From: Gaiellales bacterium
Lineage (GTDB): Bacteria; Actinomycetota; Thermoleophilia; Gaiellales; F1-60-MAGs149
NCBI GenBank assembly: GCA_964203045.1
Contig: CAXNKU010000002.1
Location: 131,855-195,854, forward strand
Direction of reading: 5' to 3'
Length of the DNA: 64,000 bases
Within the stretch, counting starts at the first letter, position 1. Every line of letters begins with the position of its first letter. Made by a program: the position numbers and the translations under genes. The notes under the pieces were generated by a model. It did not search any database, was not told the DNA's origin, and saw only the letters and a program-made list of their open reading frames with translations. Below are positions 4,922 to 62,371 of the stretch, one piece after another.

Positions 4922-4971
4922 GGCTAAAAATTAGCAGGAGCTACCGCTGAGCGGTACCCAGTAGGACCGAA

Positions 4972-7870: not shown

Positions 7871-8040
7871 GCACTTCACCTTTCGCACACGCGACCGCAC
7901 TGGTCGCATACACCCTGAGTTGTCCCCGAACGTCCCGGCTGAACCCTACCGCGCATTCCGCCGGAATTGTGCGCGCCATCTCCAACCCGCGACGTTTGGC
8001 GTGTCCGTCACGAAGAATCGGCTATGCTGCGCCCTCGATT

Positions 8041-8114
<74 letters not shown>

Positions 8115-10380: not shown

Positions 10381-10389
10381 AATCTAGTC

Positions 10390-11808
10390 ATGGCGATCGC
10401 GACCGAGCACCCCACCCGCTCTGCAGCCGACCAGCGCTACCGAAATGTCTCTGGCTGGCTCGACGGCATCCCCGAATCGCTCGATCCACGCGACGCACTT
10501 CCTGGCGACCAGCAGGTCGATGTTGCGATTGCTGGCGGCGGGTTGACGGGGCTCTGGACCGCATACTGCCTCGCCAAAGGCGACCCGCGTCTGCGCATCG
10601 TCATCTGCGAACGCGAGATCGTGGGCTATGGCGCCTCGGGGCGCAACGGCGGCTTCCAATCGGCTGGCATGGCCGGCGAGATGCGCGTCTACAAGCAGCA
10701 CGGCGGCATGGACATTGTTCGACGCGCCGAGCGCGCGTTTATCGACGGTATCGATTGGGTTGGCGACGTCGTCGCGCACGAGCAGATTGACTGCGGCTGG
10801 CACAAGGGTGGCGCGCTGCGGATCGCGACTTCGCCGACCCAGGCCGCCCGCGTCGAGGCCGGTGTGGCGGGCCGTCGCGCACGCGGCTTTACCGAGCAGG
10901 ACGTCTGGGAGATCTCGCTCGACGAGCTGCAGCAGCGCGTGCGTTTTAGTGGTGCCGTCTCTGCCACCTACACCCCACACTGCGCACGGATCGATCCGGC
11001 CCGCCTGACACGCGGCCTCGCCCATGCCTGCGAAAACCTCGGCGTGACGATCTACGAGCAGACACCGGTAACTGCGATCGAACGCGGACGACTCGTCTGC
11101 CAGCAAGGCTCGATCCAAGCCGACGTCGTGATCCGCGCGACCGAGGCCTTCACGCGCGACCTGCCCGGCGGCAAGCGTCGCTACCTGCGGATCTACTCAC
11201 ACATGCTCCAGACCGAGGTGCTGCCCGACCACGTCTGGGATGAGCTCGGCTGGGACAACTGCGAGCCAATCGCCGATCAGCGTTACCACTTCTTCTATGC
11301 GCAACGCACGATGGATAACCGCATCGCCCTCGGCGGACGCGGCACGTCGTACTACACCGGCGATCGCATCGCAGACACGAACGATCAGAACGAGGCGATT
11401 TTTGCGCGTATCGATGAGGCGCTGCGGCTCCACTTCCCTGCCGCACGCGAGGCCAAGATCGAGCACCGCTGGGGTGGCTCGTTCGCCGCACCGCGCGATT
11501 GGAGCATGCAGGTCGATTTCGACCCAACGACTGGGCTCGGTGCTGCGGGCGGTTTTGCCGGTCACGGACTGACGGGCACGAGCATCGCCGGCCGCACGCT
11601 CGCCGACCTGATTCTGAAACGCGAAACGGATTTGCTGAGCCTGCCTTGGGTGGGCCATACGTGCCGCAAGTGGGAGCCAGAGCCGCTGCGGGCGATCGCG
11701 GCCAAGTCGATCTCCGGCATTTTGCTGAGCGCCGATCAGGTTGAGGAACGCACGGGACGACCGGCGAAACGCGTGCGGATCGTCCAACGTTTCATGCCCG
11801 GCCGCTAG
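10390..11808 (+). CDS. FAD-dependent oxidoreductase (DAO family)
   Basis: Start at ATG 10390. The upstream part of the 704-aa ORF is antisense to the kinase gene. Dinucleotide-binding motif VAIAGGGLTGL plus GASGRNGG. Confidence 0.75.
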   Translation: MAIATEHPTRSAADQRYRNVSGWLDGIPESLDPRDALPGDQQVDVAIAGGGLTGLWTAYCLAKGDPRLRIVICEREIVGYGASGRNGGFQSAGMAGEMRVYKQHGGMDIVRRAERAFIDGIDWVGDVVAHEQIDCGWHKGGALRIATSPTQAARVEAGVAGRRARGFTEQDVWEISLDELQQRVRFSGAVSATYTPHCARIDPARLTRGLAHACENLGVTIYEQTPVTAIERGRLVCQQGSIQADVVIRATEAFTRDLPGGKRRYLRIYSHMLQTEVLPDHVWDELGWDNCEPIADQRYHFFYAQRTMDNRIALGGRGTSYYTGDRIADTNDQNEAIFARIDEALRLHFPAAREAKIEHRWGGSFAAPRDWSMQVDFDPTTGLGAAGGFAGHGLTGTSIAGRTLADLILKRETDLLSLPWVGHTCRKWEPEPLRAIAAKSISGILLSADQVEERTGRPAKRVRIVQRFMPGR

Positions 11809-19414: not shown

Positions 19415-19683
19415 ATTAGATAGAGCAGCCAGTCAACGTCCTGAAGTCTAGCAACCCCTCGAGACCCTGTATATGGCTTAGCGACACCGCAGCCGGAAGC
19501 TGCGCCACGAGCGCACACTAAATCTCGACGCGAGGCGCCCATCGTGACGACGCCATATCGACATGATGGATCGCGCCGAGAGCTGCTGAACCAGCAGGTG
19601 TCTCTCTGCCTCGCTTAGGTCGGGTGCGAAGCGCGCGCAAGCCCGCCGCCTGCCATATTTACGGGACTAGGGAAGGACCTCAC

Positions 19684-21129
19684 GTGTTCGTCAATCGCAC
19701 TCCACGCTTTGAACCACTTTCGGAAGACGCGCTCGACACCATCGACCGCGGCTGGAAGCGCCTTGTCTCCGAGCTTGGCATCACGTTTATGCACGAGCCA
19801 TCGCTCGAGCTGTTCAAGCGCGAGGGGCAACGGGTTGAGGGCGAAGTCGTCTTCTTCGATCCGGATTGGCTGCTGGAGCGCATCAAGACGACGCCAACCG
19901 AGTTCACCCTGCTGTCGCGCAACCCCGAGAAGAACGTCCAGTTCGGCAAGGACAACATGGTCTTCTGTACCGGCCAGTCGATGCCGTTCGTTGACGACGG
20001 CGTAACGCCACGTCGCGATGGCACGCTCGCCGACGCCGTCAAGTTGCTGCGCGCTGCCCAGATGACGCCCGAGATCGATACCCCGGGCTACCCGATCATC
20101 GAGTGCAATGACAAGCCGCTCGACTCGCGCCACCTCGACCTGCAGCTCGCCATGTACGAGAACACCGACCTCGCGGTTGGCGCCGCACAGATCCACGTCA
20201 ACGGCGTGATCGACTCGATCGCGATGGCCCAGCTCGCGCTTGGCGGCTTCGACGTGCTCGAAGAGAACCCCGGCGTCTTCGGCACGATCAACGCCAACTC
20301 GCCACTCGTCTTCGATACGCGCATGCTCGAGTCGCTCTGGTTGTTGGCCGAGCGCAATCAGATCGTCAACATCACGCCTTTCATCCTGATGGGTGCAATG
20401 GGTCCCGTCTCGCTGCCGGCCGCCCTCGCTCAGCAGACCGCCGAGTCGCTGGCGGGCATCGCGCTCGTGCAGGCGATCCGCCCTGGCTGCCCCGCGATTA
20501 TGGGTTCCTTCGTTTCGAACACGGATATGAAGTCCGGCTCGCCTGGCTTCGGTGGTCCCGAGGCCGCCTTGGGCATCCTCGCCACGGGCCAGATCGCACG
20601 CCGACACAACGTCCTCTGGCGCGCAGGCGGTGGCGGCCTCAACGCGAGCCCCGCCGTCGATGGCCAGTCGGCCTTCGAATCGCTCAACACGATGCTGCCG
20701 TCGTTCCTCGCTGGTGCCAACCTCCAGTTGCATTGCACCGGCTGGCTTGAGGGTGGGCTCGTCCACTCCTTCGCGAAGGTCGCGATGGACACGGAGATGC
20801 TGCGCCAGATGATCGCGCAGTTTACCCCCGTCGAATTTAGCGACGACACGCTCGCCTTTGGTGCCCACGAGGAAGTCGGTCACGGCGGCCACTTCTTCGG
20901 TGCCGCTCATACCCTCGAGCGGTTCCGCGACTGCTTCTATCGCCCCGAAGTCTGGACGACCGACAACTACTCGGCCTGGACGAAAAAGGAGCGACCCGAC
21001 GCAACGAAGCGCGCGCTCGCCAAGTGGGACGAGCTGCAGGAATCGTGGGAGGCGCCGGCCCTCGACCCCGATCTGCATGCCGAGTTGAAGGCCTACACCG
21101 ATCGTCGTCGCATCGAACTGGGTGACTAG
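19684..21129 (+). CDS. MttB-superfamily (trimethylamine methyltransferase-like, non-pyrrolysine) methyltransferase
   Basis: About 480 aa with length and sequence blocks typical of MttB/MtgB-type proteins, and no in-frame TAG. Start proposed at GTG 19684, 7 nt after GGAAGGA. The ORF is open from 19624. Confidence 0.75.
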   Translation: MFVNRTPRFEPLSEDALDTIDRGWKRLVSELGITFMHEPSLELFKREGQRVEGEVVFFDPDWLLERIKTTPTEFTLLSRNPEKNVQFGKDNMVFCTGQSMPFVDDGVTPRRDGTLADAVKLLRAAQMTPEIDTPGYPIIECNDKPLDSRHLDLQLAMYENTDLAVGAAQIHVNGVIDSIAMAQLALGGFDVLEENPGVFGTINANSPLVFDTRMLESLWLLAERNQIVNITPFILMGAMGPVSLPAALAQQTAESLAGIALVQAIRPGCPAIMGSFVSNTDMKSGSPGFGGPEAALGILATGQIARRHNVLWRAGGGGLNASPAVDGQSAFESLNTMLPSFLAGANLQLHCTGWLEGGLVHSFAKVAMDTEMLRQMIAQFTPVEFSDDTLAFGAHEEVGHGGHFFGAAHTLERFRDCFYRPEVWTTDNYSAWTKKERPDATKRALAKWDELQESWEAPALDPDLHAELKAYTDRRRIELGD

Positions 21130-21138
21130 GTTGACCCA

Positions 21139-21963
21139 GTGACAGTCCTATTCGGACTGTCGGCAGCGTTCTCGTGGGCGTTCGCGAGCGTCTTCGTCCA
21201 AAAGTCGTCCCGACTCGTGGATCTCCGCTTGATGCTCGTCGTGATCGTGCTTCGGATCAGTTCGTGCGAGGTCGTCCCGGTTGCGTTGATCGTCGATGGA
21301 TTACAGGGTCCGTTCAACATTCAGGCGTTGGCTATCCCCGCCCTGGCCGGCATCGCAGGCAACGTTGGCTTCCTACTGATGGTGAAGGCGATGAAGGTCG
21401 GCAGCATCAGCGTCGTGGCGCCGATCATCGCAATCGAGGGTGGACTCGCGGCAGCCGTCGCGGTCGTGCTTGGAGAGCGCCCCTCGCCCGCGACAATCGC
21501 ATTACTCGCGCTTGCCGCCGTTGGTGCCGTGCTCGTCTCAATCGAACCAGGGCGACGGACCGCGAAGGGTGCCGGTTGGGCAGTGCTCGCAGCCTTCGTC
21601 TACGCAGTCATGCTCGTGGCCATGGGGCACACGGAGCAACCGGCAATGACCTCGGCCGGGATCGCGCGCGTCGCGAGCCTCCTGACGGCGATTCCCTTGA
21701 TTCTGTTGGTGCGTCAACTGCCGCCACGCCCGGCCATCAAACCGCTGCTCGCCGCTGGCACGCTCGACGCGGTTGGCTTCGGAGCCTTCGCCATCGCCGC
21801 CTCGCTTGGGCCGTTGACTGTGGCCTCCGTCACGTCGGCCCAATGGGCCTCGGCAGCAGCACTGATCGGCATCTTCTTTCTACGCGAGCGATTGCACATC
21901 AACCAATACGTTGGGATCGCCGTCACGATGCTCGCGGTCACGGGTCTTGGATTGCTGATCTAG
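21139..21963 (+). CDS. EamA/DMT-family transporter
   Basis: 274 aa, polytopic, with two EamA halves. GTG start 9 nt after the MttB-family stop. Confidence 0.75.
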   Translation: MTVLFGLSAAFSWAFASVFVQKSSRLVDLRLMLVVIVLRISSCEVVPVALIVDGLQGPFNIQALAIPALAGIAGNVGFLLMVKAMKVGSISVVAPIIAIEGGLAAAVAVVLGERPSPATIALLALAAVGAVLVSIEPGRRTAKGAGWAVLAAFVYAVMLVAMGHTEQPAMTSAGIARVASLLTAIPLILLVRQLPPRPAIKPLLAAGTLDAVGFGAFAIAASLGPLTVASVTSAQWASAAALIGIFFLRERLHINQYVGIAVTMLAVTGLGLLI

Positions 21964-21964
21964 C

Positions 21965-22790
21965 GTGACCGTCCTCTTCGGACTTGTAACTGCGTTCGCC
22001 TGGGCGTTTGCAAACGTCTTCACCCAGCAGGTCACCCGCACCAAGACCAAGCCGGCGGTGATCATGTTCTGGGTGCTGATCGTCGACGACGGCTGCGGTG
22101 TTACCGCTCGCCCTGATCGTCGACCACCTCGAGGGGCCCTGGACGATCGAGGGGCTCGCGTGGCCTGTCGCCGCCGGTGTGCTCGCTGATGTTGGGTTCT
22201 TTCTGCTCCTGCGCGCCTTACGCAAGGGCAGCCTGAGCGTGATCGCCCCCATCATCGCGTTAGAAGGCGGCGTCGCGACGATCTTCTCGATCGCACTCGG
22301 CGAGCGCCCATCCATGCTGATGTACGCGTTGATTGTCGTGGCGGTGATCGGTGCTGTGCTCGTCGCGTTGGAGCCGGGGCGCCGCACTGCAGCCGGTGCC
22401 CCTGAAGCGATCCTGGCGGCTGTTGCCTATGCCGGCGTCCTGATCGCTCTCGGCCAATCCGAGTTGCCCGACCTGACGACGGTTGGCATCACCCGAGCAA
22501 CGAGCGTGCTCATCATTTTGCCGGCCTTCCTGCTCGTTCGCCAGTTACCGAACCGTGCCAATTTCTATCCGATTCTCTGGTGCGGATTGCTCGACGCTGT
22601 TGGCTTCGTCTGCTTCGCCTTCGCCGCCTCGATTGGTCCGCTATCGGTCGCGTCGGTCACCGCTACCCAATGGGGTACCGCCGCCGCGCTGATTGGGATT
22701 ATCGGCATGCGCGAACGACTCTTCGTCAACCAGTACATCGGTATTGCGGTGACGCTGATTGCGGTGACGGGGTTAGGACTCGCCAGCTAG
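21965..22790 (+). pseudogene. EamA/DMT-family transporter, tandem paralog of 21139..21963, frameshifted near 22094-22098
   Basis: The first 45 aa (MTVLFGLVTAFAWAFANVF...) parallel the upstream paralog in frame 21965. The remainder (VLPLALIVDHLEGPW...) continues in the frame of ORF 22098..22790. Confidence 0.7.
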
Positions 22791-23539: not shown

Positions 23540-24702
23540 GACCGTGGTCGCTTTTTCTCCGAGTCGTAGATCGGGTATGCGTCGGTCGTAGCCTCAGCGA
23601 GACTCCCGTCGGGGAGCGCCACCTGCACACGAGTACCTGCCGCGACGAGGTCTGCCTCGATACACGCCATGCCAATCAAGAGATCGACACTCGGCGAACT
23701 CCCCGCGGACGGCGACAGCAGCGTGCCGACGTTACGCCCATCCACGAAAACCTCAGCACCGTAGTCCGGAGCATCTTCGCCCGCAACGACCAGCGTAGTG
23801 AGGCGATGCGTAACGCCACCAGCCAACTCGTTGACGAGCGCCTGCTTACCAACAAAGTCGCCCGTGTCCAGACTGATCGTCCGATCCAAATTCATATGGA
23901 ACGGCGAGGTCTCGCCCACGAAATAGTCGTAGCCAATGAAGATCAAACCCGACTCGATGCGCAGCGACTCGACAGCAGCAAGACCGTACGGGAGGACGCC
24001 ATGCGATGCGCCCTCTGCCAGCAATGCCTCCCACAACACCTCAGCACTGGCCTTCGGGACATAGATCTCATAGCCGAGCTCGCCCGAATAGCCGGTGCGC
24101 GCCAGGTAGCAGCCATCGATGCCAGCAACCGTGATCGACTCGGTCGTGAAGCGGAAGTACTTCAGCGAGTCGACATCAAAGTCGGTCAGCGCATTGACGA
24201 GATCGCGCGACTTCGGCCCCTGCACCTGCACATGCGGCCACTGCTCCGTCCGGTCGAGCACCTCAACATCAAAACCCTGCTGCTTCGAGACGCGGCGAAA
24301 ATGATCGACATCGCTAGGCAGCGCGGTGACAACGAGGATGCCGGCACCAGCGTCATCGCCGGTGTTAAAGACAACGCCATCGCCGAGCATCCGACCATTC
24401 TCGTCAAGGAAGCACGAATAGCGCGCCTGACCAACCGCCAACGCGGACATGTCATTGGCAAAGCAGTAATCGACAGCCTTGGTCGCATCGTTACCGCGAA
24501 AAATCCACTTCTGAAGCGGCGACTCGTCCCAGATGGCAACCGCAGTACGAACCGCGTGATGCTCGGCAAGCGGATCACCGAAGTCCGAGATCCAGTCCCA
24601 GCCCTCCCATTCTGCAAAATTGCCACCCTGGCGACGCTGAATCGCGTCAAATGCCGTCAAGCGAAGGCCCTCAGAGCCTGCTGCGTCTGTCTGCTCGGTC
24701 AT
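23536..24702 (-). CDS. GcvT-like aminomethyltransferase-family (folate-binding) protein
   Basis: 388 aa from the internal ATG (MTEQTD...). It contains ARTGYSGELGYEIY, the hallmark GcvT block. ATGA overlap with the upstream gene. Confidence 0.8.
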   Translation of the reverse strand: MTEQTDAAGSEGLRLTAFDAIQRRQGGNFAEWEGWDWISDFGDPLAEHHAVRTAVAIWDESPLQKWIFRGNDATKAVDYCFANDMSALAVGQARYSCFLDENGRMLGDGVVFNTGDDAGAGILVVTALPSDVDHFRRVSKQQGFDVEVLDRTEQWPHVQVQGPKSRDLVNALTDFDVDSLKYFRFTTESITVAGIDGCYLARTGYSGELGYEIYVPKASAEVLWEALLAEGASHGVLPYGLAAVESLRIESGLIFIGYDYFVGETSPFHMNLDRTISLDTGDFVGKQALVNELAGGVTHRLTTLVVAGEDAPDYGAEVFVDGRNVGTLLSPSAGSSPSVDLLIGMACIEADLVAAGTRVQVALPDGSLAEATTDAYPIYDSEKKRPRS

Positions 24703-26696
24703 GATCGCGGCCTCTTCTTCTCGGGGTCGTAAATTGGGAACGTGTCGGTGTAGGCCGGCACGAGACGACCGTCCGGCAACGCCACCTCGACGCGGTTGCC
24801 CGGCTCGGCCAAATCCGCTTCGAGGCATGCGATGCCGATCAGACGATCAATGCTTGGCGAGCGACCATCCGACGGCGACAGCAGCTTGCCCACACCACGA
24901 CCATTGACGAATACATCAGCGCCATAATCCGGCGCCTCGTTGCCCGCCACCACGAGGGTCGTCAGGCGATGTGTGATGCCACCAGCCAACTCGTTGACGA
25001 GCGCCTGCTTGCCTTCGAAGTCGCCCGTCTCCAAATTGATCGTGCGCTCTAAGTTCATGTGGAACGGCGACGTCAGACCTGGGAAGTAGTCGTAGCCGAT
25101 GAAGATCAGGCCCGACTCGATGCGCAACGACTCGACAGCCGCGAGGCCGTACTGGCGAATACCAAGCGAAGCGCCATGGTCGAGCAGCGCCTGCCAGAGC
25201 GCCTCGGCGGCACCCTTCGGCACGTAGATCTCGTAACCGAGCTCGCCCGAGTAGCCCGTGCGGGCCAGATAGCAGCCATCGATGCCGGCGATCGTGATCG
25301 GCTCGGCGGTAAAGCGGAAGTACTTGAGGCTCGACACATCGAAGTCGGTCATCGAATCGACCAGATCGCGCGCCTTGGGACCCTGCACCTGAATGTGCGG
25401 CCACTCCTCGGTGCGATCAAGCACTTCAACGTCAAAGCCCTGCTGCTTCGAGACGCGGCGGAACTGGTCGACATCGCTCGGCAGTGCCGTTACGACGAGA
25501 ATGCCCGCCTTTTCGGGATCGCCCGTATTGAAAGCGACACCGTCACCGAGCATCCGGCCGTGCTCGTCGAGGAAGCAGGAGTAGCGTGCCTGACCAACCT
25601 GCATCGAAGCCATGTCATTGGCAAAGCAGTAGTCGACAGCCTTGACTGCGTCGGGGCCACGGAAGATCCACTTTTGCAGCGGCGACTCGTCCCAGATACC
25701 AACGGTCTCGCGAACAGCGTGATGCTCGTTGAGTGGATCGCCGAAGTCGGAAATCCACGACCAGCCCTCCCACTCCGCGAAGTTGCCTCCGTAGCGACGC
25801 AAGATGCCGTCGAACGCCGTCTTACGAAGGCCCTCAGTCGATGGCAGAGGTGCGGGAGGCTCAACGACGGTGATGCCAGCGGCGTCAACGGGAGGCGAAC
25901 TCTCCTGGTCGGCTGCGGCAATCGGGCTGTCAACGGGGATGATCACGATCGGTGCCTGTCGCAGGTCGGCAGGCTGGTGGCCAGGCGGCAATACCTCAGA
26001 GACACCAAGTAGCGCACGCGCCGCAGCGGCGTTCGGAAGCGTGCGGTATTCCTCGAGGCAGCGCATCGGCTCTTGATCGAGGTTGCGGCGGATGCGGCGA
26101 TAGCGCGCCTGCGCACCGGCGCCGATACCCGGCGTCGAGAAGATCGCCTGCTCGACGTACGACTCGATCACCTTGTTGCCAAGCAATGCGACGTCGGCCT
26201 CGCGCGCCTTGCCCGTCAACGGGTTGTAGAGCACGATGCACTTGACGGTGTCGAGAAACGAGTTCCACGTCGACAACACGACCGGTCCACGCACGCGAAT
26301 GCCCGTCTCGGGAATCGCCAGATGCGTGATACGACGATCGTTGATCGTGTGGATCAGCGACTCGGCCGTGGGCGACATGATGCTGACGAACTTGTGCATC
26401 GGCCAGACGTCGAGCTGGTTCCAATCGCCGGGCTCGCAATCGACACCAATCATGTAGGTGTCGGCGTAGCGGAAGAAGTTCGACGTGCCGCGCGTCTCGC
26501 GCAGATGGTCGTAGAACAGCGTGTTCGTGCCACCAATCAGATTCGAGCACCCAACCGCATCCATCGGAGTTCCCATCAGCACACAGAAGCGATCACCGTT
26601 CTTGTAACCACCGGGCCAGAGGCTCGCAAGTGGAGCGGACGCGCCATCACGAACGACAGCGAAATCCTCGGAGTTGAGGGCGTAGGAGGAATGCAT
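24699..26696 (-). CDS. fusion protein: unassigned N-terminal domain (about 285 aa) + Pro-rich linker + GcvT-like aminomethyltransferase domain
   Basis: Single 665-aa ORF. The C-terminal 375 aa or so are highly similar to the downstream paralog (same ARTGYSGELGYEIY block, same ...PIYD.EKKRPRS end). I could not assign the N-terminal part to any family. Confidence 0.7.
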   Translation of the reverse strand: MHSSYALNSEDFAVVRDGASAPLASLWPGGYKNGDRFCVLMGTPMDAVGCSNLIGGTNTLFYDHLRETRGTSNFFRYADTYMIGVDCEPGDWNQLDVWPMHKFVSIMSPTAESLIHTINDRRITHLAIPETGIRVRGPVVLSTWNSFLDTVKCIVLYNPLTGKAREADVALLGNKVIESYVEQAIFSTPGIGAGAQARYRRIRRNLDQEPMRCLEEYRTLPNAAAARALLGVSEVLPPGHQPADLRQAPIVIIPVDSPIAAADQESSPPVDAAGITVVEPPAPLPSTEGLRKTAFDGILRRYGGNFAEWEGWSWISDFGDPLNEHHAVRETVGIWDESPLQKWIFRGPDAVKAVDYCFANDMASMQVGQARYSCFLDEHGRMLGDGVAFNTGDPEKAGILVVTALPSDVDQFRRVSKQQGFDVEVLDRTEEWPHIQVQGPKARDLVDSMTDFDVSSLKYFRFTAEPITIAGIDGCYLARTGYSGELGYEIYVPKGAAEALWQALLDHGASLGIRQYGLAAVESLRIESGLIFIGYDYFPGLTSPFHMNLERTINLETGDFEGKQALVNELAGGITHRLTTLVVAGNEAPDYGADVFVNGRGVGKLLSPSDGRSPSIDRLIGIACLEADLAEPGNRVEVALPDGRLVPAYTDTFPIYDPEKKRPRS

Positions 26697-26739: not shown

Positions 26740-27390
26740 CTAGTTCATACGCGCAGAGACGCGCTTGTGATCAAACTCCATGACCCGGCGATCGCGCTCG
26801 TCTAACGGCAGATCAAGGCGCATTCTGGCAGCAATCAGCGTCCGCCCAACATCGCCCCGACGCTCATACGAGCCAACGAGGTTCGAGAGGATGCGGAGGG
26901 CGGTCTGGTGCGTCGAGGTCGATTCGACAGTCACGCCAGTGGGAATATCGGGCATGCGCACGCCACTCTTGAACGGGTCAATCAGGATCGGATCGCCTTC
27001 GCCAAAGTACGCAGCCACGAAATGACCCGGCAGGCCAACTCCACGCAGGGGTAGGCCGAGCCGTCGCCCCACCTCAATCCAGACGACGCTGAGCAGGATC
27101 GGCAGCCCCCGGTGTCGCTGCAGGACGAGGTCCAGCATCGAGTTGTTGGGATGGTCGTACTCCTCGACGTCACCTGCAAAGCCCTCGTGTCGCCCGAGCA
27201 CGGCCGCCAGCGCGTCGAGCTGTTCGTAGGGCGTCTCTCCCAAGCCATGACGCACGACCTCGCCGGCCAACCGGTCGAGCTCGGCGAGCGCGGCCTCGCT
27301 GTCGACCTCGCGTAGCTCACTGGCAATCGCAAGCGCCAGCACGTCGAGGGTTGGCGCGTCAGTGCGCGCGAGTTGAGCGAATTGATCCAT
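26740..27390 (-). CDS. SirB1/transglutaminase-like (UPF0162) family protein
   Basis: 216 aa from the internal ATG (MDQFAQL...). The block GLPILLSVVWIEVGRRLGLPLRGVGLPGHFV is typical of the family. It lies 43 nt upstream of the fusion gene on the same strand. Confidence 0.7.
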   Translation of the reverse strand: MDQFAQLARTDAPTLDVLALAIASELREVDSEAALAELDRLAGEVVRHGLGETPYEQLDALAAVLGRHEGFAGDVEEYDHPNNSMLDLVLQRHRGLPILLSVVWIEVGRRLGLPLRGVGLPGHFVAAYFGEGDPILIDPFKSGVRMPDIPTGVTVESTSTHQTALRILSNLVGSYERRGDVGRTLIAARMRLDLPLDERDRRVMEFDHKRVSARMN

Positions 27391-27478
27391 CACGGGTATC
27401 TTTGCGTGTTTCTCGTACGCAGGATTGGTGCAAAGCCATATTGGGGATTTGCGCCAGCTTGGCAATCCACTTCGATTT

Positions 27479-27508
27479 GGACATGATGGGCCCGGGCCCA
27501 TCATGTCC
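27479..27508. repeat. family-2 perfect palindrome (30 bp)
   Basis: GGACATGATGGGCCCGGGCCCATCATGTCC, repeated at 27669-27704. A related copy lies at 30209-30254. Confidence 0.95.
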
Positions 27509-27668
27509 GGCCTGCTCTGTGACGGCATTGCGCGCGCTGTGTGCACCTTCGTGCGCTCCACGCGCAGACTCCACCTCCATCACGCGCGTTACGCAGCACA
27601 GTCGGCCCGTTTGCTGCGCGAGTGTCCGAGCTGTGAGCCGCAGTGCAGTGCGCAAGGTGTCACAGGTG

Positions 27669-27774: not shown

Positions 27775-28921
27775 CTAGAGCGAGATGCGCGAACCCATCG
27801 GCGTGTCGTAGCGCGTGAACGGCATCTCGGCGGGGATCCGCTCGAGCGCGAAGGCCTTGGCGTCCGGCCACAACTCTCGACCTTCCGTCAGGTCGGCAAG
27901 GATCTCGCCCAATACGGGCGTGAACTTCATGGCATGCCCACAGCAACCCGCTGCGACCACGATCGCCCCACGGCGGCCATACGTGTACTCCGCATCCGGA
28001 GTCATCGTCCACGGGCAGGCCTCTGTCATGTACGGGCCATCCGTGACGAGTCCGGGCGCATGCGTTGCAACCCACTCGCGATTGCACTCCTCCTCGAATT
28101 CGCGACGCTCCCACTCGGTGGCATCAGAAAACCAGGCCGCCTCGTCGCCATAATCGAGACCAATCTTGTAGCCCTTGCCTGGCGTCGGCAGACCGTAGAC
28201 GCCCATCTTGCCGTCGGCCTGAAAATCGACAAGCGACGGACGGCGCCCAGGTGCCCCCTCCACGCCAGTACGAGACCTGCCCAATCGCTGGGACGAGCGG
28301 GAGGCTAAAGCCGAGCGGTGGCAGCAACTCCTCCGCCCACGGCCCGGCGGCGATGACTGCCGCATCGGCCTCGATCACGCGCAGGTCCGTCGTGACGCGC
28401 ACACCCGCGGGCGTCTCGGTGATCTCCAGCATTCGTTCGGGCATCGCCAATTCGGCGCCGGCTGCCCGTGCCGCAGCAGCAATCGCGGCCAGACCTCGTC
28501 GAGCAAAGACGACACCATCGGCAGGGACCAAGACTGCGGGCTCGTCTGGGCGAAACGCCAACTCGGGGAAGACGCGCTCAACGCCGGCCGCATCGAGCTC
28601 CTCAACCACGAGCCCCTCATCGCGCATCGCGGTCACCCACGCCGGTACGGGTTCTCCGCGGAGGATCAGGCCGACTTGATCGATCAGCTGCTCGCCACTC
28701 AGCTGCTCTAGCTCGCGCCACAATTCGAGCGCGCGGCGTGCGAGGCGGATATCTTCGGGACGATCGTGGGCGAGACGAAAGATGCGGGTCTCGCCCGCCG
28801 ACGAGCCAGCGGGTGCCGAGATGCCGTGCCGATCGATGCCGATCACGTCGTGGCCACGCTCGGCCAGCACTCGCGCGGTCGGCAAGCCCATCGCACCAAG
28901 GCCGACGACGACAACTTTCAT
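27775..28921 (-). pseudogene. monomeric sarcosine oxidase/SolA-like FAD oxidoreductase, frameshifted at a C5 run (28264-28268)
   Basis: The N-terminal part (MKVVVVGLGAMG...AIGQVSYWRGG) is in the frame of ORF 28124..29104. The C-terminal part (APGRRPSLVDF...GCCGHAMKF...) is in the frame of ORF 27775..28365. Removing one G from GGGGG (minus strand) restores a single ORF. Confidence 0.8.
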
Positions 28922-30168
28922 CGCGACATCGCCGACTGTCGCGCGACCACACCAGCGAGCACGAGATCCGCGGACCGACGCCCTGCGCGCAGCGCGCCAT
29001 CGATCGAAGCATTCTCGGTACCGTCTCCCGACACCACGACGGAGTCCCTCAACCAATGCGCACCGGTGCTCAGCGAACCGGGCGGCTGGGCGTGCTGAGC
29101 CCACTCAATGCGATCCGTCCGCAACAGGCGCCACGTATCAACACGACCACCAAACCAGCTTGTGAGTTGGGCGTACGCAGCCGACGCGAGCGCCGCATCA
29201 TCCCCTCTAAAGGGCATGCCAACACACGACGCCGCGACCAGCGAGCGGCCGGATGGAGCGTACGACGGTGCAACAGCGCTCATCACCGCGACATTGTTGA
29301 CTGGGCCGACGCCATCACCATCGAGCACGATGCGACGCCCGGCAGGCGCCTCGGGCGCGTCGAACCAGAGGCACGTCGAGCCTCGGGGGGCAGGTGCTTC
29401 GACACCCGCCAGCGTGCAGGTGTCGTCGGTGCCAGCGGCGATCACAACCGCAATCTCCGCGCGCAGCTTTTCACCAGACTCGAGCGTCACGCTGCGCTTG
29501 CCGACTTTTGCCACCCGCTCGTTGAGACGAATTGCACCCGCAGGCAGTCGTGCCGCCAGCTGCTCGGAGATAGCCCCCATGCCGCGAGCCGGTACAACCG
29601 TGCGGCCCGCCGCCATCTGCAAGAAGACTTGATCCAGGAGGCGGCTCGAGACTCCGAGCTCTCGATCGAGAAACACGCCGGCGTAAAGCGGACGCAAGAG
29701 ATGCTCGCGCATGTCGTCAGAGAAGCCCAGCGAGCGTAATCGCTCGTCGGCCGTCACCTCGGGCGCGGTCGCAGTGGCCAGCGGACGGGCGTCGCGCAAC
29801 CACTTGGCGGCCGCCCGAATGTCGCGTGGCTTGCCGAGGCCAGCACGCAATGCGTCTGGCAGTGAGCGCGGGTCGCGCAGCGGATGACCAATCGTGCGCA
29901 TGCGCCCGTCCCACCAGATGTCCGCACCCGGCAGAAAGGCACGCAGATCGAGCGCCTCGAGATCGAGCGCTCGCTGTGCCTCCGGGTAGCCATCGAATAG
30001 CACCTGAAAGCCGCGGTCGAGCAAGAAGCCATCAACCGCATCCGTACGCACACGTCCCCCAACACCATCAGACGCCTCGACGACTACGACTTCGAGGCCG
30101 CGCTCGATCAAGAGGCCAGCGCAACGCAGACCCGAAAGTCCCGCTCCAATCACAATCACGTCAGCCAT
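28918..30168 (-). CDS. flavin-containing amine-oxidase/desaturase-family oxidoreductase
   Basis: Start at the internal ATG (MADVIVIGAGLSGL...). GxGxxG plus EA...GGR typical of PF01593 proteins. Its stop overlaps the downstream start (ATGA). Confidence 0.7.
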   Translation of the reverse strand: MADVIVIGAGLSGLRCAGLLIERGLEVVVVEASDGVGGRVRTDAVDGFLLDRGFQVLFDGYPEAQRALDLEALDLRAFLPGADIWWDGRMRTIGHPLRDPRSLPDALRAGLGKPRDIRAAAKWLRDARPLATATAPEVTADERLRSLGFSDDMREHLLRPLYAGVFLDRELGVSSRLLDQVFLQMAAGRTVVPARGMGAISEQLAARLPAGAIRLNERVAKVGKRSVTLESGEKLRAEIAVVIAAGTDDTCTLAGVEAPAPRGSTCLWFDAPEAPAGRRIVLDGDGVGPVNNVAVMSAVAPSYAPSGRSLVAASCVGMPFRGDDAALASAAYAQLTSWFGGRVDTWRLLRTDRIEWAQHAQPPGSLSTGAHWLRDSVVVSGDGTENASIDGALRAGRRSADLVLAGVVARQSAMSR

Positions 30169-30208
30169 AGGCACGAGTTTGCCATGGGTTTGCGTTTGAT
30201 GCGATATG

Positions 30209-30254
30209 AGGACAGGCGACATTTTGGGCCCGGGCCCAGAATGTCGCCTGTCCT
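30209..30254. repeat. family-2-related 46-bp near-perfect palindrome in a divergent promoter region
   Basis: AGGACAGGCGACATTTTGGGCCCGGGCCCAGAATGTCGCCTGTCCT. It shares the TGGGCCCGGGCCCA centre with the copies near 27.5 kb. Confidence 0.9.
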
Positions 30255-34552: not shown

Positions 34553-36445
34553 TCAGGCAAGCACGAGGATCTGGTCGTCCTCGCTAAACGTGACCGGCTT
34601 GCTTTTCGGCGGATTGAGGACAACACCACCACCGAGCGTCACATCGCCATGATCATCGCCAACGCGGCGATAGCCAACACAGACGTGGCCACGCCGGCGG
34701 GCCGCTGCCACGACGTCGGCGAAGGATTGCTCTTCGCCCGTGGTGACATAGCGCGACGCAGGAACGAGCACGAGCTCGACTCCCTGGGCATCAAAGAGGT
34801 CGGCGAAGACGCCACGGAGATCCGCGTTCTCCGACAACTGCGCGAGCATCAGACTCGTCAGGCGCTCGCTGACGACGAAGTCGTCGGGGTTTGCAATGCG
34901 CGCCAACTCGACATCGCGAACGTCGAGCAGTTCGGTGACGAGACGCACACCGTGGTTTGGGCTGCCCTCGACTTCTGTCGCCTGACGCACCTGCAGGAGC
35001 GTCAGCAGCGTGCGGGCATCGCTGTCTGCGACATCGCCCGTGCGGTAGCAGAGGATGATCACCTGGTCGTAGGCGCTTCGACCGATCTCGGCGGCCAATA
35101 ACTGGCCATCGATCGTGTCCATCTCGACGAGGTCAATCACCATGTTTTCCACCGCAGCAGCGCGCGGTGCCATGCCCGTCCGTGCCGGGTCGAATAGCAC
35201 GCGCACCTCCGAACCGGGCGCAACGTAGCGATCCAATTCGCGCAGCACGAGCGGCGCCATCGCGTTCCAACCGATCACGAGGGTTCGCTCGACCTTCAAT
35301 TCGAGCGGTGGCTCAGAGGCTGTCGCCGCGGCCTGCCCCGGGACGATTTCGCCGTCGAGCATCACGGTGTCGTCGTCTGCCGAAATCGCGATAACTTGGT
35401 CGCCATCGGCAAAGACACGCTGCATCGGAGGGCTCAGAGTGACCGTGCCATCAGCCGCTCGCACACCAATCACGGCCGACGATTCGTACAGCGTCAGGCA
35501 GTCGCCAAACGTATGGCCCGTCAGCTTGGGCTCGGCTTGGAAGTAGATCTCAATACCGTCGAAATCGAGCAAGTCTTGGAACACGAAACTGAGCCCGGCC
35601 TGGCGGCAGACCTGAGCGGTGATCCGTGAGATCACATCGCTGGTGACCACGACGCCGAGCCGGCCCCCGGTGGCTCGCTCGAGTGCCTGAGCCGAATCGG
35701 CCTCTAAGAATTCGGCCGTGACACGAAGGTGTTCAAAGCCCGCATCAAAGCCCATCAAGGCCAGAATCGTCTTGACCGTTTGTGGGTCGCCAGCCTCGTC
35801 GTCGGCGAGTACCAAGACAGACTTCGCCTCCATCGGACGCACGAGTGCCAGATCCGAAGGATCCGACGGGTCGCCCGATCGGCAAATCACACGAGTGCGG
35901 CGCGGTCCACTGGCACGGGCCCGAACCTCGTCTTCCATCTCGACCTTGTCGCGCGGAGCAAGGACAACCACGCTCGGGTTGCGCTGGTTCTTGTTGGCAA
36001 CCTCGATCTCGGTGAGGACTTGATGCAGCTTTGGCGACCAGCCAAGAATCAGCGTGTGCCCCTCTTCCACGACCAGCGAACGTCCCTTGCGCAGCTCATC
36101 GAGCTTGCGATTAATGCCGGCGCCGATCAGTCCGATCAGGGTCGACAACACAAAGATGCCAGCAACCGTCACCAACAATGCGACGATTCGCCACGACCAA
36201 TCCTGATCTGCACCAAGCGCGCCTTTGGCGAGCGCGAGCATCAGACTCGTCCAGACGCCCTCAAAAAAGCTGGTCTGGCTTTCGTCGGCAGTGCGGAGGC
36301 CGAGCAGTGAGATGATCAGCCCGGCGATAAGCACCACCACCAGCGTCACGGCGGCCAGCCACCCCATCACGCCGATCGTGCCCCGAGACAACGTCGCCTC
36401 GAAGCGATAGCGCAGGCGATCTCGTGTGGTGATTGGACGGCTCAT
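34553..36445 (-). CDS. CASTOR/POLLUX-related putative ion channel with RCK/TrkA-like domains
   Basis: 630 aa. The N-terminal RLRYRFEATLSRG motif and 3-4 TM helices are followed by two Rossmann-like RCK regions. Confidence 0.65.
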   Translation of the reverse strand: MSRPITTRDRLRYRFEATLSRGTIGVMGWLAAVTLVVVLIAGLIISLLGLRTADESQTSFFEGVWTSLMLALAKGALGADQDWSWRIVALLVTVAGIFVLSTLIGLIGAGINRKLDELRKGRSLVVEEGHTLILGWSPKLHQVLTEIEVANKNQRNPSVVVLAPRDKVEMEDEVRARASGPRRTRVICRSGDPSDPSDLALVRPMEAKSVLVLADDEAGDPQTVKTILALMGFDAGFEHLRVTAEFLEADSAQALERATGGRLGVVVTSDVISRITAQVCRQAGLSFVFQDLLDFDGIEIYFQAEPKLTGHTFGDCLTLYESSAVIGVRAADGTVTLSPPMQRVFADGDQVIAISADDDTVMLDGEIVPGQAAATASEPPLELKVERTLVIGWNAMAPLVLRELDRYVAPGSEVRVLFDPARTGMAPRAAAVENMVIDLVEMDTIDGQLLAAEIGRSAYDQVIILCYRTGDVADSDARTLLTLLQVRQATEVEGSPNHGVRLVTELLDVRDVELARIANPDDFVVSERLTSLMLAQLSENADLRGVFADLFDAQGVELVLVPASRYVTTGEEQSFADVVAAARRRGHVCVGYRRVGDDHGDVTLGGGVVLNPPKSKPVTFSEDDQILVLA

Positions 36446-36500
36446 GAACGCGTAGGACTATACCAACGTCAGGGTCGATTCGACTAGAGCGCGAGAAGAG

Positions 36501-36640
36501 TCAGGCGCCGGTTGACGAACCAGCGCCAACGGCAACCTGCTGGTCGACAGCGAGCGAACGCTGCGCGCTATAGGCGAACACAACAAGCAGGAGCCGGTTG
36601 AGCGCGAGCGCCAACAGACCGAGACCGATCGCCAACGAAA
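36501..36640 (-). pseudogene. relic 3' fragment of a paralog of the membrane-protein gene 39782..41092
   Basis: About 140 nt align with 39782-39926. The minus-strand translation ...LGLLALALNRLLLVVFAYSAQRSLAVDQQVAVGAGSSTGA* matches ...LGLLALALNRILLVIFSHRAQRALAAEQQTTVGAGSSTDA*. No upstream remainder of the gene is present. Confidence 0.6.
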
Positions 36641-36674
36641 GGTGACCTCACTGTCATACCTGCTAACGTAAAAT

Positions 36675-37253
36675 ATGAACCAAAAAGCAACCGACACCGC
36701 TCCAGAAGTCATAATGTTTGTGCGCCATGGTGAGAAACCAGGTGAAGACACTGAGCCCCATGGTGTTAACGCAGAAGGTAAACACGACAGTCACTCACTT
36801 TCGGTATTGGGTTGGACGCGAGCCGGAGCGCTAGCTGGCTTTTTTGCCCATGCACCCTCGGAGGCTCATCCGCACGTCGTCAAGCCTGAACGGATTTTGG
36901 CAACGAGGCCAACACCCGATGCAAAAAGTAAGCGCGAGATCGACACCGCAACACCCACCGCCCGACGACTAAACCTCGAGATTGAAGACGATCACACCCA
37001 CGGCAATGAGTCAAACCTGGTTTCTGAAGTACTTGGCCGCCCCGAATCCACCCTGATCGTCTGGCACCACGGCACTATGGCGAAAATTGTGCGGCACTTC
37101 CCGGTTGTAAATAAGGAAGACATCCCGCACCGCTGGCCGGATGAGCGATTTGACCTAATTTGGGTTCTCGTGCGGCAACCTGGTGACGAACTGGCATATC
37201 GATTTGTTGTGGTGCCGCAATTGTTGCTGGCTGACGACGTAGAAACTGAATAG
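36675..37253 (+). CDS. histidine phosphatase-superfamily protein
   Basis: 192 aa with an N-terminal RHGE catalytic motif (FVRHGEKPG) and a later conserved His (VWHHG). Confidence 0.6.
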   Translation: MNQKATDTAPEVIMFVRHGEKPGEDTEPHGVNAEGKHDSHSLSVLGWTRAGALAGFFAHAPSEAHPHVVKPERILATRPTPDAKSKREIDTATPTARRLNLEIEDDHTHGNESNLVSEVLGRPESTLIVWHHGTMAKIVRHFPVVNKEDIPHRWPDERFDLIWVLVRQPGDELAYRFVVVPQLLLADDVETE

Positions 37254-37263
37254 GACTCCCCAG

Positions 37264-38808
37264 ATGAGCGACGTTCAGGGCGAGCTTGAAGTACCTAAGA
37301 CTCCGCGCACTCCCGCGGAAGAAGCAGTGCACCAGGCTGATAAAGCCAAAAAAAAGAAAGCCAAGGCGCTAGCACTTTCAGCAATCACGTTATCGGTTTT
37401 TTTGTGTTGGCTCGGTAGCACGGTTTTCATTGCGTCACATAAGGTGATGGCGGCGCAACTAGGTATCAGCACTCTGGAAGTGACTCTGGCACTCGCGAGT
37501 TACTCGGTTGCGCTGATCATGATCGCGATTGCAGGCGGTCGGCTGTGTGACATCATCGGCCGCAAACGGATGTTTGTTATTGCTGCCGTCGTATTTTCCG
37601 TGACAGCAGTTTCTGGCGTGCTTATTGAAAACTTTTGGTCTCTCCTGCTGGTACGAGTGGTGTTGGGCCTATGCGCAGGACTAATCCTGACGTCTACGGG
37701 GGGAATTTTAGTCACGACTATGCACGGTGATACCCGCCATAATGGGTGGCTGCTTTGGCGTGGCGCGGGTATGAGCGGCATGGTCCTGGGCCCGGTTTTT
37801 GGACCAGTCATATCGAGCGGCGTCGAGTGGCATGTGCCGTTTCTGGCAAGTGCCCTGCTGATGCTGGTAGCACTTGTCCTTGGTGTCTTTGGGATGACGG
37901 AGAGCCGTGATGAAGACAGTGTCTTCAGTTTTGGGCTCTTAGCTCCTACGGTTTTGCTGGGTCTTGGATTACTGAGCCCGTACTTAGTCCTGCTCGTGTT
38001 CAAGGAGCAGGTCGAGAGTTGGCCTTTGGCGGGCGCTATCGTCGTCGGCGGGATCATCTGTTTCATTGGATACTTCGTACTCAATAGAAGGTTTTCAAAT
38101 AAACTGTTTGACACCAACATTCTTACCCATAACCGTCGGTTGTGGCTGACCGATATTTTTGGCGGAATTCACGTAGGCGCCCTTTTTGTAGTGGTCGCAG
38201 CCTTCACGGTGATTCTGGATGCTGATACCAAATTGACTTCCACCTGGATTGGTATCGGCATGCTGCCGCTCGTTTTACCCCTAATTACGTTGCATTTGTT
38301 GGCACACAGATTTAGAGAAAAGTATGGGCTTACGAGGCAAAAAGAAACAATTATTGGATGCGTACTGCTAACACTCAGCATGATTTGGTGGTTCGCTGTG
38401 TCGGTGGGAAATCCAAATTACTGGACGATACTGCCAGCCTTGATTCTGATAGGAGCTGGCTTTGGCCTGATCCGGCTCTATGGGCACATGGGCGTCATTA
38501 AGGACACCGGCCAAAGGTGGTCGTCCACACTTTTCGGGACTCGAACTTTCAGTAATCACATCGGTGCGGCCATAGGCGCGGTAATCATCGGCTACATACT
38601 CGTGGCGGCCTCAATTGGCAACGAAACATTAGATCCGGAGGCGGCTAAGCAAGCCGGCCTGATCGCCAGCTTCTCGATATTGGTCGTAATTGTTTCGTCG
38701 ATCGTGTTCGCTGGCCTTAAGGCCAAACTACTCGGGCTTGAAGATCCACACTGGCATGCGCCAAGGTCTGCGGGCGCAGGTGAGAGCTCCGAAGAGCGTG
38801 TGCTTTGA
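37264..38808 (+). CDS. MFS transporter, 14-TM DHA2 (EmrB/QacA)-like
   Basis: 514 aa with about 14 hydrophobic helices and the motif GGRLCDIIGRKRM. Low-GC codon usage. Confidence 0.75.
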   Translation: MSDVQGELEVPKTPRTPAEEAVHQADKAKKKKAKALALSAITLSVFLCWLGSTVFIASHKVMAAQLGISTLEVTLALASYSVALIMIAIAGGRLCDIIGRKRMFVIAAVVFSVTAVSGVLIENFWSLLLVRVVLGLCAGLILTSTGGILVTTMHGDTRHNGWLLWRGAGMSGMVLGPVFGPVISSGVEWHVPFLASALLMLVALVLGVFGMTESRDEDSVFSFGLLAPTVLLGLGLLSPYLVLLVFKEQVESWPLAGAIVVGGIICFIGYFVLNRRFSNKLFDTNILTHNRRLWLTDIFGGIHVGALFVVVAAFTVILDADTKLTSTWIGIGMLPLVLPLITLHLLAHRFREKYGLTRQKETIIGCVLLTLSMIWWFAVSVGNPNYWTILPALILIGAGFGLIRLYGHMGVIKDTGQRWSSTLFGTRTFSNHIGAAIGAVIIGYILVAASIGNETLDPEAAKQAGLIASFSILVVIVSSIVFAGLKAKLLGLEDPHWHAPRSAGAGESSEERVL

Positions 38809-38919
38809 GCTCAGCATGAAGTGCCCCAGGTTAGTTTTCTTATCTTGGGACGCGGATGCGGTTAGTTCTTGGATGCCTTCAAAGGCGATCGCGTGTCGTG
38901 ATCTGCCGCGCCACGGCGC

Positions 38920-39618: not shown

Positions 39619-39781
39619 GTTCGTTCTCCTGGTCTGAGCCGACAAGGCCGGCGACAATCATGCCCGGCAATCTATCAGCACCTGCGGCGCATCGGTAGTC
39701 CGGGCGTTTGCGGGCGCAGCTGCCTCGCTGGCCGGTCAAACACGAGACGGTTCGGACGCCCAGCGGAAGCGACGAGACGCG

Positions 39782-41092: not shown

Positions 41093-41132
41093 AGGCGGGA
41101 CGGTAGCACGCGCTGCCTGCACAGATGTATCC

Positions 41133-62356: not shown

Positions 62357-62371
62357 GTCAGTCCCTCCGGC

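Follow-up and report, generated by a model that had tools for sequence, protein, structure and literature searches.

A Fusion of an Unannotated Alpha/Beta Protein Family to a GcvT-Type Folate Module in Gaiellales, a Candidate Part of One-Carbon Removal From Methylated Nitrogen Compounds

Introduction

Methylated amines, along with glycine betaine, make up major pools of carbon, nitrogen, and osmolytes and give rise to climate-active gases. Their demethylation steps are known mainly from Proteobacteria. The closest described systems bring a folate-binding module of the GcvT type together with a source of one-carbon (C1) units. Tdm, the trimethylamine N-oxide (TMAO) demethylase, starts with a non-flavin domain (DUF1989) that is a few hundred residues long and continues into a GcvT module, and dimethylglycine dehydrogenase (DMGDH), sarcosine dehydrogenase (SARDH), and SoxA carry a C1-generating module fused to a folate module that forms methylene-tetrahydrofolate (methylene-THF). 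The dmmABC genes encode dimethylamine monooxygenase, and dmmD, the fourth gene of the proteobacterial operon, encodes a GcvT-domain protein proposed to conjugate formaldehyde from this separate demethylase to tetrahydrofolate (PMC5520151). DmdA follows the logic of LigM/DesA-MetF, in which a methyl group is passed to THF and then handled by MTHFR (PMC7487153). Here, we describe an open reading frame (ORF) for a 665-aa protein in a 64,000-nt stretch of DNA from a Gaiellales bacterium (assembly GCA_964203045.1, contig CAXNKU010000002.1, positions 131,855 to 195,854), the whole of which is referred to below as the window. In this protein, a GcvT module is preceded by a domain belonging to a protein family that we call FAM.

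As judged from its domains, the architecture of the protein parallels the "partner domain + GcvT" kind seen in Tdm and DMGDH/SARDH, but is built on a new protein family. It also has a methylated-amine context in common with Tdm. Because FAM relatives occur in bacterial and archaeal gene clusters for the demethylation of methylated amines and betaine, the fusion may well be a part so far missing from the removal of C1 units from methylated nitrogen compounds. FAM, as newly defined here, is found in soil and freshwater Actinobacteria, methylotrophic Bacilli, Alphaproteobacteria, and haloarchaea, and is wired by fusion and by operons to folate C1 enzymes and to three classes of amine demethylases. 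Its activity, once worked out, would fill a pathway gap, add a new fold-and-function pair, and help to annotate hundreds of proteins now called "hypothetical" as well as those labeled only "aminomethyltransferase". Cultured and tractable hosts exist in Bacillus methanolicus, Paracoccus, Rhodococcus opacus 1CP, and Haloterrigena.

Domain Layout and Continuity of the Fusion ORF

The ORF is uninterrupted over 665 codons and starts with an ATG at position 26696, 43 nt past the stop codon of the upstream gene, with an AGGA ~10 nt upstream of the ATG (Table 1). The N-terminal MHSSY was kept across the alignment of fused proteins. Pfam searches identified GCV_T (204 bits, E 3e-60, gathering cutoff 25.6) and GCV_T_C (30.5 bits, gathering cutoff 25.9) in the C-terminal part, and with both domains above their gathering thresholds the protein is, by profile, a member of the GcvT/aminomethyltransferase superfamily. 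The ARTGYSGELGYEIY block and the Pro/Ala-rich stretch were both found in the ORF. For residues 1-285, no match was obtained in Pfam even at E ≤ 1, no meaningful match in NCBIfam, and no PDB chain by sequence; likewise, a profile search of PDB sequences with the family alignment gave matches through the GcvT columns only and none at N-domain positions. These results bear out the initial annotation, made from the DNA alone, which had read the ORF as an aminomethyltransferase-like domain behind an N-terminal part that fitted no nameable family and that had neither a DUF1989-like nor a flavin-binding motif; none was detected by Pfam or NCBIfam, and no confident match to a characterized family emerged. 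The size of ~285 aa that had been given to this part needs revision, since the domain is real but spans ~230-245 aa, the rest being a connector and a linker. The connector was kept across fused proteins and missing from stand-alone FAM members in two alignments, and a strand within it (residues 232-236) was modeled with a confidence (pLDDT) of ~92. The linker had a pLDDT <50 in the first structure model.

Unlike DMGDH, SARDH, and SoxA, the window protein has no DAO, FAO_M, or FAD domain and no dinucleotide-binding motif. It also differs from Tdm, as its N-domain is unrelated to DUF1989, and the NCBIfam model NF053776 was matched only at model positions 386-762, with 223 bits against a cutoff of 1100.

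Relatives of the fusion were sought in one genome per GTDB species. This yielded 95, of which the best 80 loci (L001-L080) were examined. The fusion family is therefore present in at least 95 species, and the 80 loci examined all came from metagenome-assembled genomes (MAGs) of Thermoleophilia, Gaiellales, or Actinomycetota; the window itself shares ~98% identity with MAGs from fresh water, among them ELA505 and a bin from a Lake Superior bloom. An intact orthologous ORF of 658-680 aa was present in 63 of the 80 loci, in independent assemblies with short-read MAGs among them, while the remaining loci were contig ends or long-read MAGs with frameshifts. The protein database held >60 full-length proteins of 658-689 aa, labeled only "aminomethyltransferase". 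The first homology search also returned many seemingly stand-alone proteins of ~270 aa and odd ones of 380-480 aa, as would be expected if an assembly or frameshift artifact had merged two separate genes in the window. However, these short entries end at contig ends or in Arg-rich, out-of-frame tails, and every homolog that reaches past the N-domain stays in register across the linker and on into GcvT. Together with the intact loci and the full-length database proteins, this leaves the artifact hardly conceivable, and we consider it excluded by the comparative data. Because independent assemblies gave intact ORFs, no read mapping was needed to confirm the continuity of the ORF, about which the initial annotation had been cautious. 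The 665-aa protein is a genuine two-module fusion conserved across an order of Actinobacteria.

The frameshifted family entries (among them P0003, P0005, P0016, P0029, P0050, P0065, P0081, P0085, and P0100) probably derive from metagenome assemblies of error-prone long reads. They pass for stand-alone or truncated proteins, and a survey of domain architecture could be misled by them.

The GcvT Module and Its Coupled Partner Gene

Among solved relatives, the fused module scored 155 bits with Bacillus subtilis GcvT (1yx2), 152 bits with Tdm (9q5a, matched across the whole GcvT module), and only 69 bits with DmdA (3tfh, which we take to be the Pelagibacter enzyme). The fusion and Tdm also have the C-terminal tail YDPxKxRPRS in common (YDPEKKRPRS in the window, YDPKKERPRS in Tdm). 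The fused module is thus, by these matches, of the T-protein/Tdm type and not DmdA-like. A glycine-cleavage T-protein with a lineage-specific N-terminal extension would account for the small margin by which B. subtilis GcvT was the best solved relative, and perhaps for a GcvP gene of the window, 17 kb distant and not adjoined by a gcvT. Nevertheless, the window protein scored below the curated GcvT cutoffs (167.4 vs. 235.85 for TIGR00528 and 222.8 vs. 300 for PRK00389) and so is not called as a GcvT equivalog; its score with PRK13579 was 140.4 against a cutoff of 459. Neither gcvH nor gcvP was among the recurrent neighbors of the fusion in the 80 loci, the tail is that of Tdm, and the N-domain family has a demethylase-linked distribution of its own. 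Taken as a whole, these observations make it very improbable that the protein is simply the T-protein of this lineage.

A stand-alone GcvT paralog, already noticed in the initial annotation, lies between the fusion and a glutamate-racemase-like gene and was found only in the window, L002, and L007 among the 80 loci. Because it is confined to these three, the paralog evidently arose when the C-terminal half of the fusion gene was recently duplicated in tandem. The three genes of the window are linked by 4-nt start/stop overlaps (ATGA between fusion and paralog, GTGA between paralog and racemase-like gene). In at least 50 of the 63 intact loci, the racemase-like gene immediately follows the fusion on its downstream side, in many cases overlapping it by 4 nt, and the gene is translationally coupled to the fusion across the order. 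The 250-aa partner matched MurI structures in the PDB at E 6e-8, but scored 37.6 bits against the cutoff of 328 for glutamate racemase in NCBIfam (NF002035). Where glutamate racemases have their catalytic cysteines in ACNTA and GCTH, the window protein reads ASGFAS and LTPSAY. Among its orthologs, the first catalytic Cys is replaced by Ser, Ala, Gly, or Thr; the second is retained as CPH in many soil-clade orthologs, while the clade of the window has TPS. The partner may be a subunit that binds an amino-acid-like ligand. The partner and its orthologs in L001-L080 also have a basic C-terminal region of the RRRRAGR type.

FAM Is a Widespread Family Without Annotation

An exhaustive profile search of 1.84 billion cluster representatives (threshold E ≤ 1e-3) returned 411 cluster representatives of FAM, mostly stand-alone proteins of 220-280 aa that start with MH(T/S). 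E-values reached 1e-162 for fused members and ranged from 1e-46 to 1e-17 for stand-alone members, and no Pfam match was found for ten distant members. FAM occurs in Gaiellales (the fused form), Solirubrobacterales, Chloroflexia, Bacillaceae, and Paenibacillaceae, as well as on plasmids or chromids of Paracoccus, Mesorhizobium, Terrarubrum, R. opacus 1CP, and Arthrobacter and of the haloarchaea Natrinema, Halococcus, Haloterrigena, and Halomarina. By profile and model, then, FAM is a widespread alpha/beta family that is annotated by no database.

In an alignment of 102 diverse members, H2 and R36 were invariant, and M1, F12, P28, D35, Y62, Y77, D96, W98, P99, K102, N119-D120-R121, E215, and R218 were at least 87% conserved. 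The window protein has all of these hallmarks: the N-terminal MH, the DR before strand 1, Y77, D96-x-W-P-x-(H)-K102, the N-D-R at 119-121, and E215/R218. The polar set (H2, D35, R36, Y62, Y77, D96, K102, N119-D120-R121, E215, and R218), which is strongly kept in members as distant as Bacteria and haloarchaea, appears to fit a catalytic or ligand-binding site better than a scaffold. Neither Pfam nor motif checks recognized a cofactor or metal motif in FAM sequences, and no DNA-binding domain was detected by Pfam in ten members or in the structure model. The fused clade lacks H84, which is 87% conserved in stand-alone members, as well as H89 and H92, and has near-invariant residues of its own (D46, C50, N52, C55, C87, S142-T143-W144-N145, N174, E182, and Q183), although C55 is Gly in the lineage of the window. 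From these alignments, the fused clade is a remodeled FAM subfamily.

Predicted Structure of the N-Domain

A model of the N-domain built from a shallow alignment was poor (pLDDT 65.5), and the Rossmann dehydrogenase matches obtained with it (E ~0.02, TM ~0.2) were dropped for that reason. The model built from the 102-sequence alignment reached a pLDDT of 94.8 and a pTM of 0.92 and showed a three-layer alpha/beta architecture. When this 250-residue model was compared with the PDB using Foldseek, a check that the initial annotation had proposed, no match was obtained at E ≤ 1e-3, and Tdm structures were not among the fold matches. The sole coherent group consisted of LmbE/PIG-L zinc N-deacetylases (MshB, TT1542, and diacetylchitobiose deacetylase; 4xm2, 1uan, 3wl3, 4ewl, and 1q74). 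These matches were weak (probability 0.51-0.98, TM 0.33-0.42, E ≥ 2.8e-3), with those of probability 0.82-0.98 spanning ~236-304 alignment columns, approximately the full length of the model. The sequence profiles gave no relation to this family. The LmbE zinc motif [AP]H[AP]DD was present in none of the 102 FAM members, H.DD in one, and the motif with a later HxxH in none; moreover, the conserved FAM residues in the model are mostly just before beta-strands and not after them, another difference from the LmbE family. FAM would be, at most, a very distant and catalytically unrelated derivative of the LmbE/PIG-L fold.

Genomic Context of FAM Genes

In B. methanolicus PB1, the stand-alone FAM gene comes after genes for a cupin, an HODM-alpha-like protein (DmmB), a DmmA-like protein, and a DmmA-like protein with Fer2 (DmmC), with ammonium transporters and FAD_syn-like and ACAD-fold genes nearby, and the FAM locus of Bacillus sp. 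1NLA3E resembles this DmmABC/HODM-like cluster. FAM here takes the fourth-gene position of a dmm-like cluster, which is the position of dmmD, although DmmD is described as a GcvT-domain protein. In Niallia, FAM comes after an electron-transfer flavoprotein (ETF), a CCG/Fe-S protein, and an Oxidored_FMN+Pyr_redox_2 enzyme (DgcAB-like). Other Bacilli have FAM with ACAD-fold enzymes, FMN reductases, EutQ-like cupins, permeases, and genes of the ribulose monophosphate (RuMP) type, and stand-alone forms without GcvT occur in such RuMP-type Bacilli, where free formaldehyde is assimilated directly. On plasmids, FAM lies between transporters for amines or betaines (APC, BCCT, or ABC) and oxidoreductases of the FAD, LLM, or Rieske kind. 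Five Bacillaceae loci (L081, L083, L087, L088, and L089) have 140-460 nt of non-coding DNA before FAM, and FAD_syn-like genes, ACAD-fold genes with FMN reductases, and EutQ-like cupins alongside it. No Rfam family or riboswitch was found in the gaps upstream of Bacillus FAM genes.

A scan of soil metagenomes yielded 80 loci of Solirubrobacterales-type stand-alone FAM genes, which were sorted into three types. In Type A, FAM is divergent from a DgcA-like gene, ETF-beta, ETF-alpha, and a CCG/Fe-S gene, a layout that matches the dgcAB_fixAB dimethylglycine demethylase cluster (PMC12093977). In Type B, FAM, an optional MTHFR-family gene, and GcvT follow one another on one strand, and a divergent upstream operon encodes a DAO+FAO_M+GCV_T+GCV_T_C dehydrogenase of the DMGDH/SARDH type with an ETF and an Fe-S protein. 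Type C is a single lineage with housekeeping neighbors. Demethylase, ETF, or folate partners were present in 12 of the 15 non-Type-C loci with at least 2.5 kb of flank on each side. FAM is thus associated, across the family, with N-methyl demethylases, ETF-linked dehydrogenases, and folate C1 enzymes. An earlier expectation, that the nearest stand-alone relatives adjoin GcvT, did not hold at three Solirubrobacterales-type places sampled by contig; the link emerged from the larger metagenome sample.

The Type B GcvT beside FAM differs from the fused module. It scored 247 bits with DmdA (3TFH, the code paired with DmdA in PMC7487153) vs. 178 for T-protein and is only 28-31% identical to the fused module of the window. 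For this reason, an origin of the fusion by the joining of a Type B FAM-GcvT pair was rejected. By these scores, the GcvT-fold proteins to which FAM is tied belong to two functional subfamilies, so that one fusion of one gene pair is not a likely origin. The product of DmdA-type enzymes is 5-methyl-THF, and an MTHFR gene next to them would make sense on that account; these split operons, which join FAM, an MTHFR-family gene, and a DmdA-like GcvT, resemble DmdA systems in that respect. A literature search returned no described partner protein of DmdA, Dgc, or Dmm enzymes, and we know of none for DmdA. The FAM-(MTHFR)-DmdA-like GcvT operon was seen in nine soil contigs (L120, L122, L135, L136, L153, L155, L164, L173, and L174), in which the divergent operon comprised the DMGDH/SARDH-type dehydrogenase, ETF-beta, ETF-alpha, and a CCG/Fe-S oxidoreductase. 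We see in it a candidate demethylase system of Solirubrobacterales-type bacteria that would work by THF-dependent methyl transfer. In L179, a T-like GcvT is convergent to FAM.

Around the Gaiellales fusions, the context is different. The MttB-family/EamA genes downstream of the fusion are kept only in the freshwater clade L001-L017, and the transglutaminase-like and flavin amine oxidase genes upstream only in L001-L016 of the same clade. The other neighbors include MFS and polyamine-type substrate-binding-protein transporters, a DAO oxidoreductase, a luciferase-like monooxygenase, and a xanthine-dehydrogenase-type enzyme. A tblastn search with Bacillus DmmA, DmmB, and DmmC found no dmmABC homologs in the window or in L001-L080, and the idea that the fusion shares the dmm, dgc, ACAD, or cupin neighbors of Bacillus was rejected, as none was present in the window or near any fusion. 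The Gaiellales neighborhoods are uninformative about the substrate.

Proposed Function of the Fusion

The reading that we favor, and hold tentatively, is that the fusion removes a C1 unit from an N-methylated amine or a betaine-derived compound, with FAM acting on the C1 donor and GcvT loading THF. We infer the action of FAM, the identity of the substrate, and the ligand-binding role of the racemase-like partner on top of an architecture, a conservation, a genomic association, and a GcvT type that were observed directly. FAM may take part as a catalyst or by presenting the substrate. It would bind and process the methylated substrate, or an activated form of it delivered by a separate flavoenzyme (e.g., an N-oxygenated or iminium species), and would do so without any recognizable redox cofactor. 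The C1 unit would then pass to THF on the GcvT module and leave as 5,10-methylene-THF, with the degenerate glutamate-racemase-like subunit translated from the overlapping downstream gene. An action of FAM on the C1 donor is suggested by its conserved polar set, which looks like a small-molecule site, by its stand-alone occurrence in most lineages, including RuMP methylotrophs that use free formaldehyde, and by its attachment to GcvT-fold enzymes of two different subfamilies. The tail in common with Tdm and the precedent that DmmD sets for a GcvT-type formaldehyde sink (PMC5520151) lend the favored reading further support. In its boldest form, FAM would be a new enzyme class that, with no recognizable cofactor or with a metal site of a novel kind, frees or hands on C1 units from quaternary amines, N-oxides, or related N-methyl compounds, as a non-homologous counterpart of the DUF1989 domain of Tdm. 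We regard this form as rather unlikely; if it were true, the FAM-GcvT fusion and the FAM-MTHFR-DmdA-like operons would be unrecognized THF-dependent demethylases and might supply a step that is missing, e.g., the one that opens the breakdown of glycine betaine or TMAO in Thermoleophilia, Bacilli, and haloarchaea.

Several observations weigh against a demethylating role. The proposal is built on sequence, context, and predicted structure; no cofactor or metal motif was recognized, and the nearest fold is a weak, LmbE-like match (TM 0.38-0.42, E >1e-3) whose zinc motif is absent from FAM. Most stand-alone contexts already hold a complete oxidative demethylase (DgcAB-, DMGDH-, or DmmABC-like), and therefore FAM is not the primary demethylase in those loci. 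Some stand-alone members lie by RNase J and a two-component system, by oligopeptide ABC transporters, or by housekeeping genes, and, beyond the racemase-like gene, the neighbors of the Gaiellales fusions vary. The organisms that carry Type A loci are related to one another, as are those with Type B loci, and this makes the independent associations fewer than the loci. In addition, the function of the fused form may differ from that of stand-alone members, because the otherwise-conserved H84, H89, and H92 were lost and C50, C55, C87, and D46 gained. The initial annotation had suggested, by analogy with known fusions, a new demethylating or C1-releasing catalytic domain. What stands of this is that genomic context links FAM both to folate C1 enzymes and to the demethylation of methylated amines and betaine; a role as the main demethylase does not hold where stand-alone relatives adjoin complete demethylases, nor did a cofactor motif come to light.

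The main rival is an accessory role, in which the N-domain would be a non-catalytic ligand-sensing or docking domain that couples a DmmD-like, formaldehyde-trapping GcvT module to separate flavoprotein amine oxidases or dehydrogenases and leaves the C1 donor itself untouched. The position of stand-alone FAM beside complete DmmABC-, DgcAB-, and DMGDH-like demethylases would be consistent with this, as would the flavin amine oxidase and DAO-type genes that occur close to the fusion of the window and to some other Gaiellales fusions, and DmmD is itself known as a non-essential, GcvT-type formaldehyde sink (PMC5520151). The lack of a cofactor motif and the divergent orientation of Type A FAM to the DgcA-like operon, as is often the case for regulators, point the same way. 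On the other hand, many stand-alone members have no GcvT gene nearby for docking, a DNA-binding domain was not detected, the polar residues that never vary look like those of a small-molecule site, and a regulator-enzyme fusion maintained across an entire order would be unusual. An accessory role is thus possible, if somewhat doubtful. A further proposal, that the N-domain handles the folate cofactor itself, would make it a hydrolase or interconverting enzyme that recycles C1-loaded folates in place of PurU- or FolD-type steps and keeps THF available under heavy demethylation flux. MTHFR-family and GcvT-fold genes are indeed the tightest co-directional partners of FAM, which pairs with both methyl-transfer and methylene-transfer GcvT types that have only folate as a common factor; its nearest fold is that of N-deacylases, whose amide hydrolysis resembles deformylation, and purU is typical of betaine catabolic clusters (PMC12093977). 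But the LmbE zinc motif is missing in all members, sequence and fold searches showed no likeness to known folate enzymes, and the Bacillus contexts use RuMP-type formaldehyde assimilation with no folate genes nearby. We therefore consider folate recycling improbable.

Other Features of the Window

The initial annotation had placed the fusion in a locus concerned with methylated amines, and the window does contain an MttB-family gene, an MgsABC-like trio, and a GcvP gene (Table 1). The MttB-family gene looks like a non-pyrrolysine type because it scored far below the cutoff specific for trimethylamine (TMA), and no corrinoid protein gene was seen nearby. The two separate EamA ORFs may represent a split or duplicated transporter.

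Table 1. Positions of the fusion ORF, its parts, and other features discussed in the text (window coordinates unless a locus is named).
Feature	Position	Strand	Basis
Whole fusion ORF, 665 aa (FAM N-domain + connector + GcvT module)	24699..26696	-	ORF listing, orthologs
N-domain core, residues 1-230, member of the unannotated family FAM	26007..26696	-	No library matches, profile search, model
Connector kept only in fused proteins, residues 231-265, LLGVSEVLPPGHQ...IIPV	25902..26006	-	Alignments
Variable Pro/Ala-rich linker, residues 266-290	25827..25901	-	Poorly conserved alignment columns
GCV_T folate-binding domain, residues 299-551	25044..25802	-	Pfam PF01571
GCV_T_C barrel, residues 577-657, then tail YDPEKKRPRS	24726..24968	-	Pfam PF08669
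Stand-alone GcvT paralog, 388 aa	23536..24702	-	81% identity to residues 290-665 of fusion
Glutamate-racemase-like partner gene, 250 aa, degenerate catalytic residues	22787..23539	-	MurI matches, context
MttB-family methyltransferase	19624-21129	+	Pfam; 222 bits vs. 525-bit TMA equivalog cutoff
Two EamA transporter ORFs	21139-21963, 22098-22790	+	Pfam
Transglutaminase-like (SirB1-like) gene	26740-27561	-	Pfam
Flavin amine oxidase	28918-30222	-	Pfam
Glycine-cleavage P-protein GcvP, 992 aa, without adjoining gcvT or gcvH	4931-7909	-	
704-aa protein, DAO FAD-oxidoreductase domain at residues 276-639	9694-11808	+	
Trio of class-II amidotransferase-like (302 aa), GXGXG/FwdC-like (271 aa), and glutamate-synthase FMN-domain (452 aa) ORFs	60998-63975	-	
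DMGDH/SARDH-type example	L136:3393-5900		DAO-type dehydrogenase near stand-alone FAM

The subunit pattern of the trio matches that of the N-methylglutamate synthase MgsABC of the methylamine pathway; no equivalog-level match was obtained for it. A protein similar to BHMT/HMT is also encoded in the window. An Rfam scan of the window found no glycine riboswitch and no riboswitch of any other kind, and a tRNA gene is located near gcvP, at 8041-8114. The best NCBIfam match of the 704-aa DAO protein was a putative aminophosphonate oxidoreductase (184 bits, below the cutoff), and its ~275 N-terminal residues have no assignment, making it another unannotated fusion in the window. The ORFs at 38920-39657 and 39782-41230 had no Pfam match. 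Finally, the segment from 36000 to 40000 has a GC content of 0.56-0.57, compared with ~0.65 elsewhere, and may be acquired DNA.

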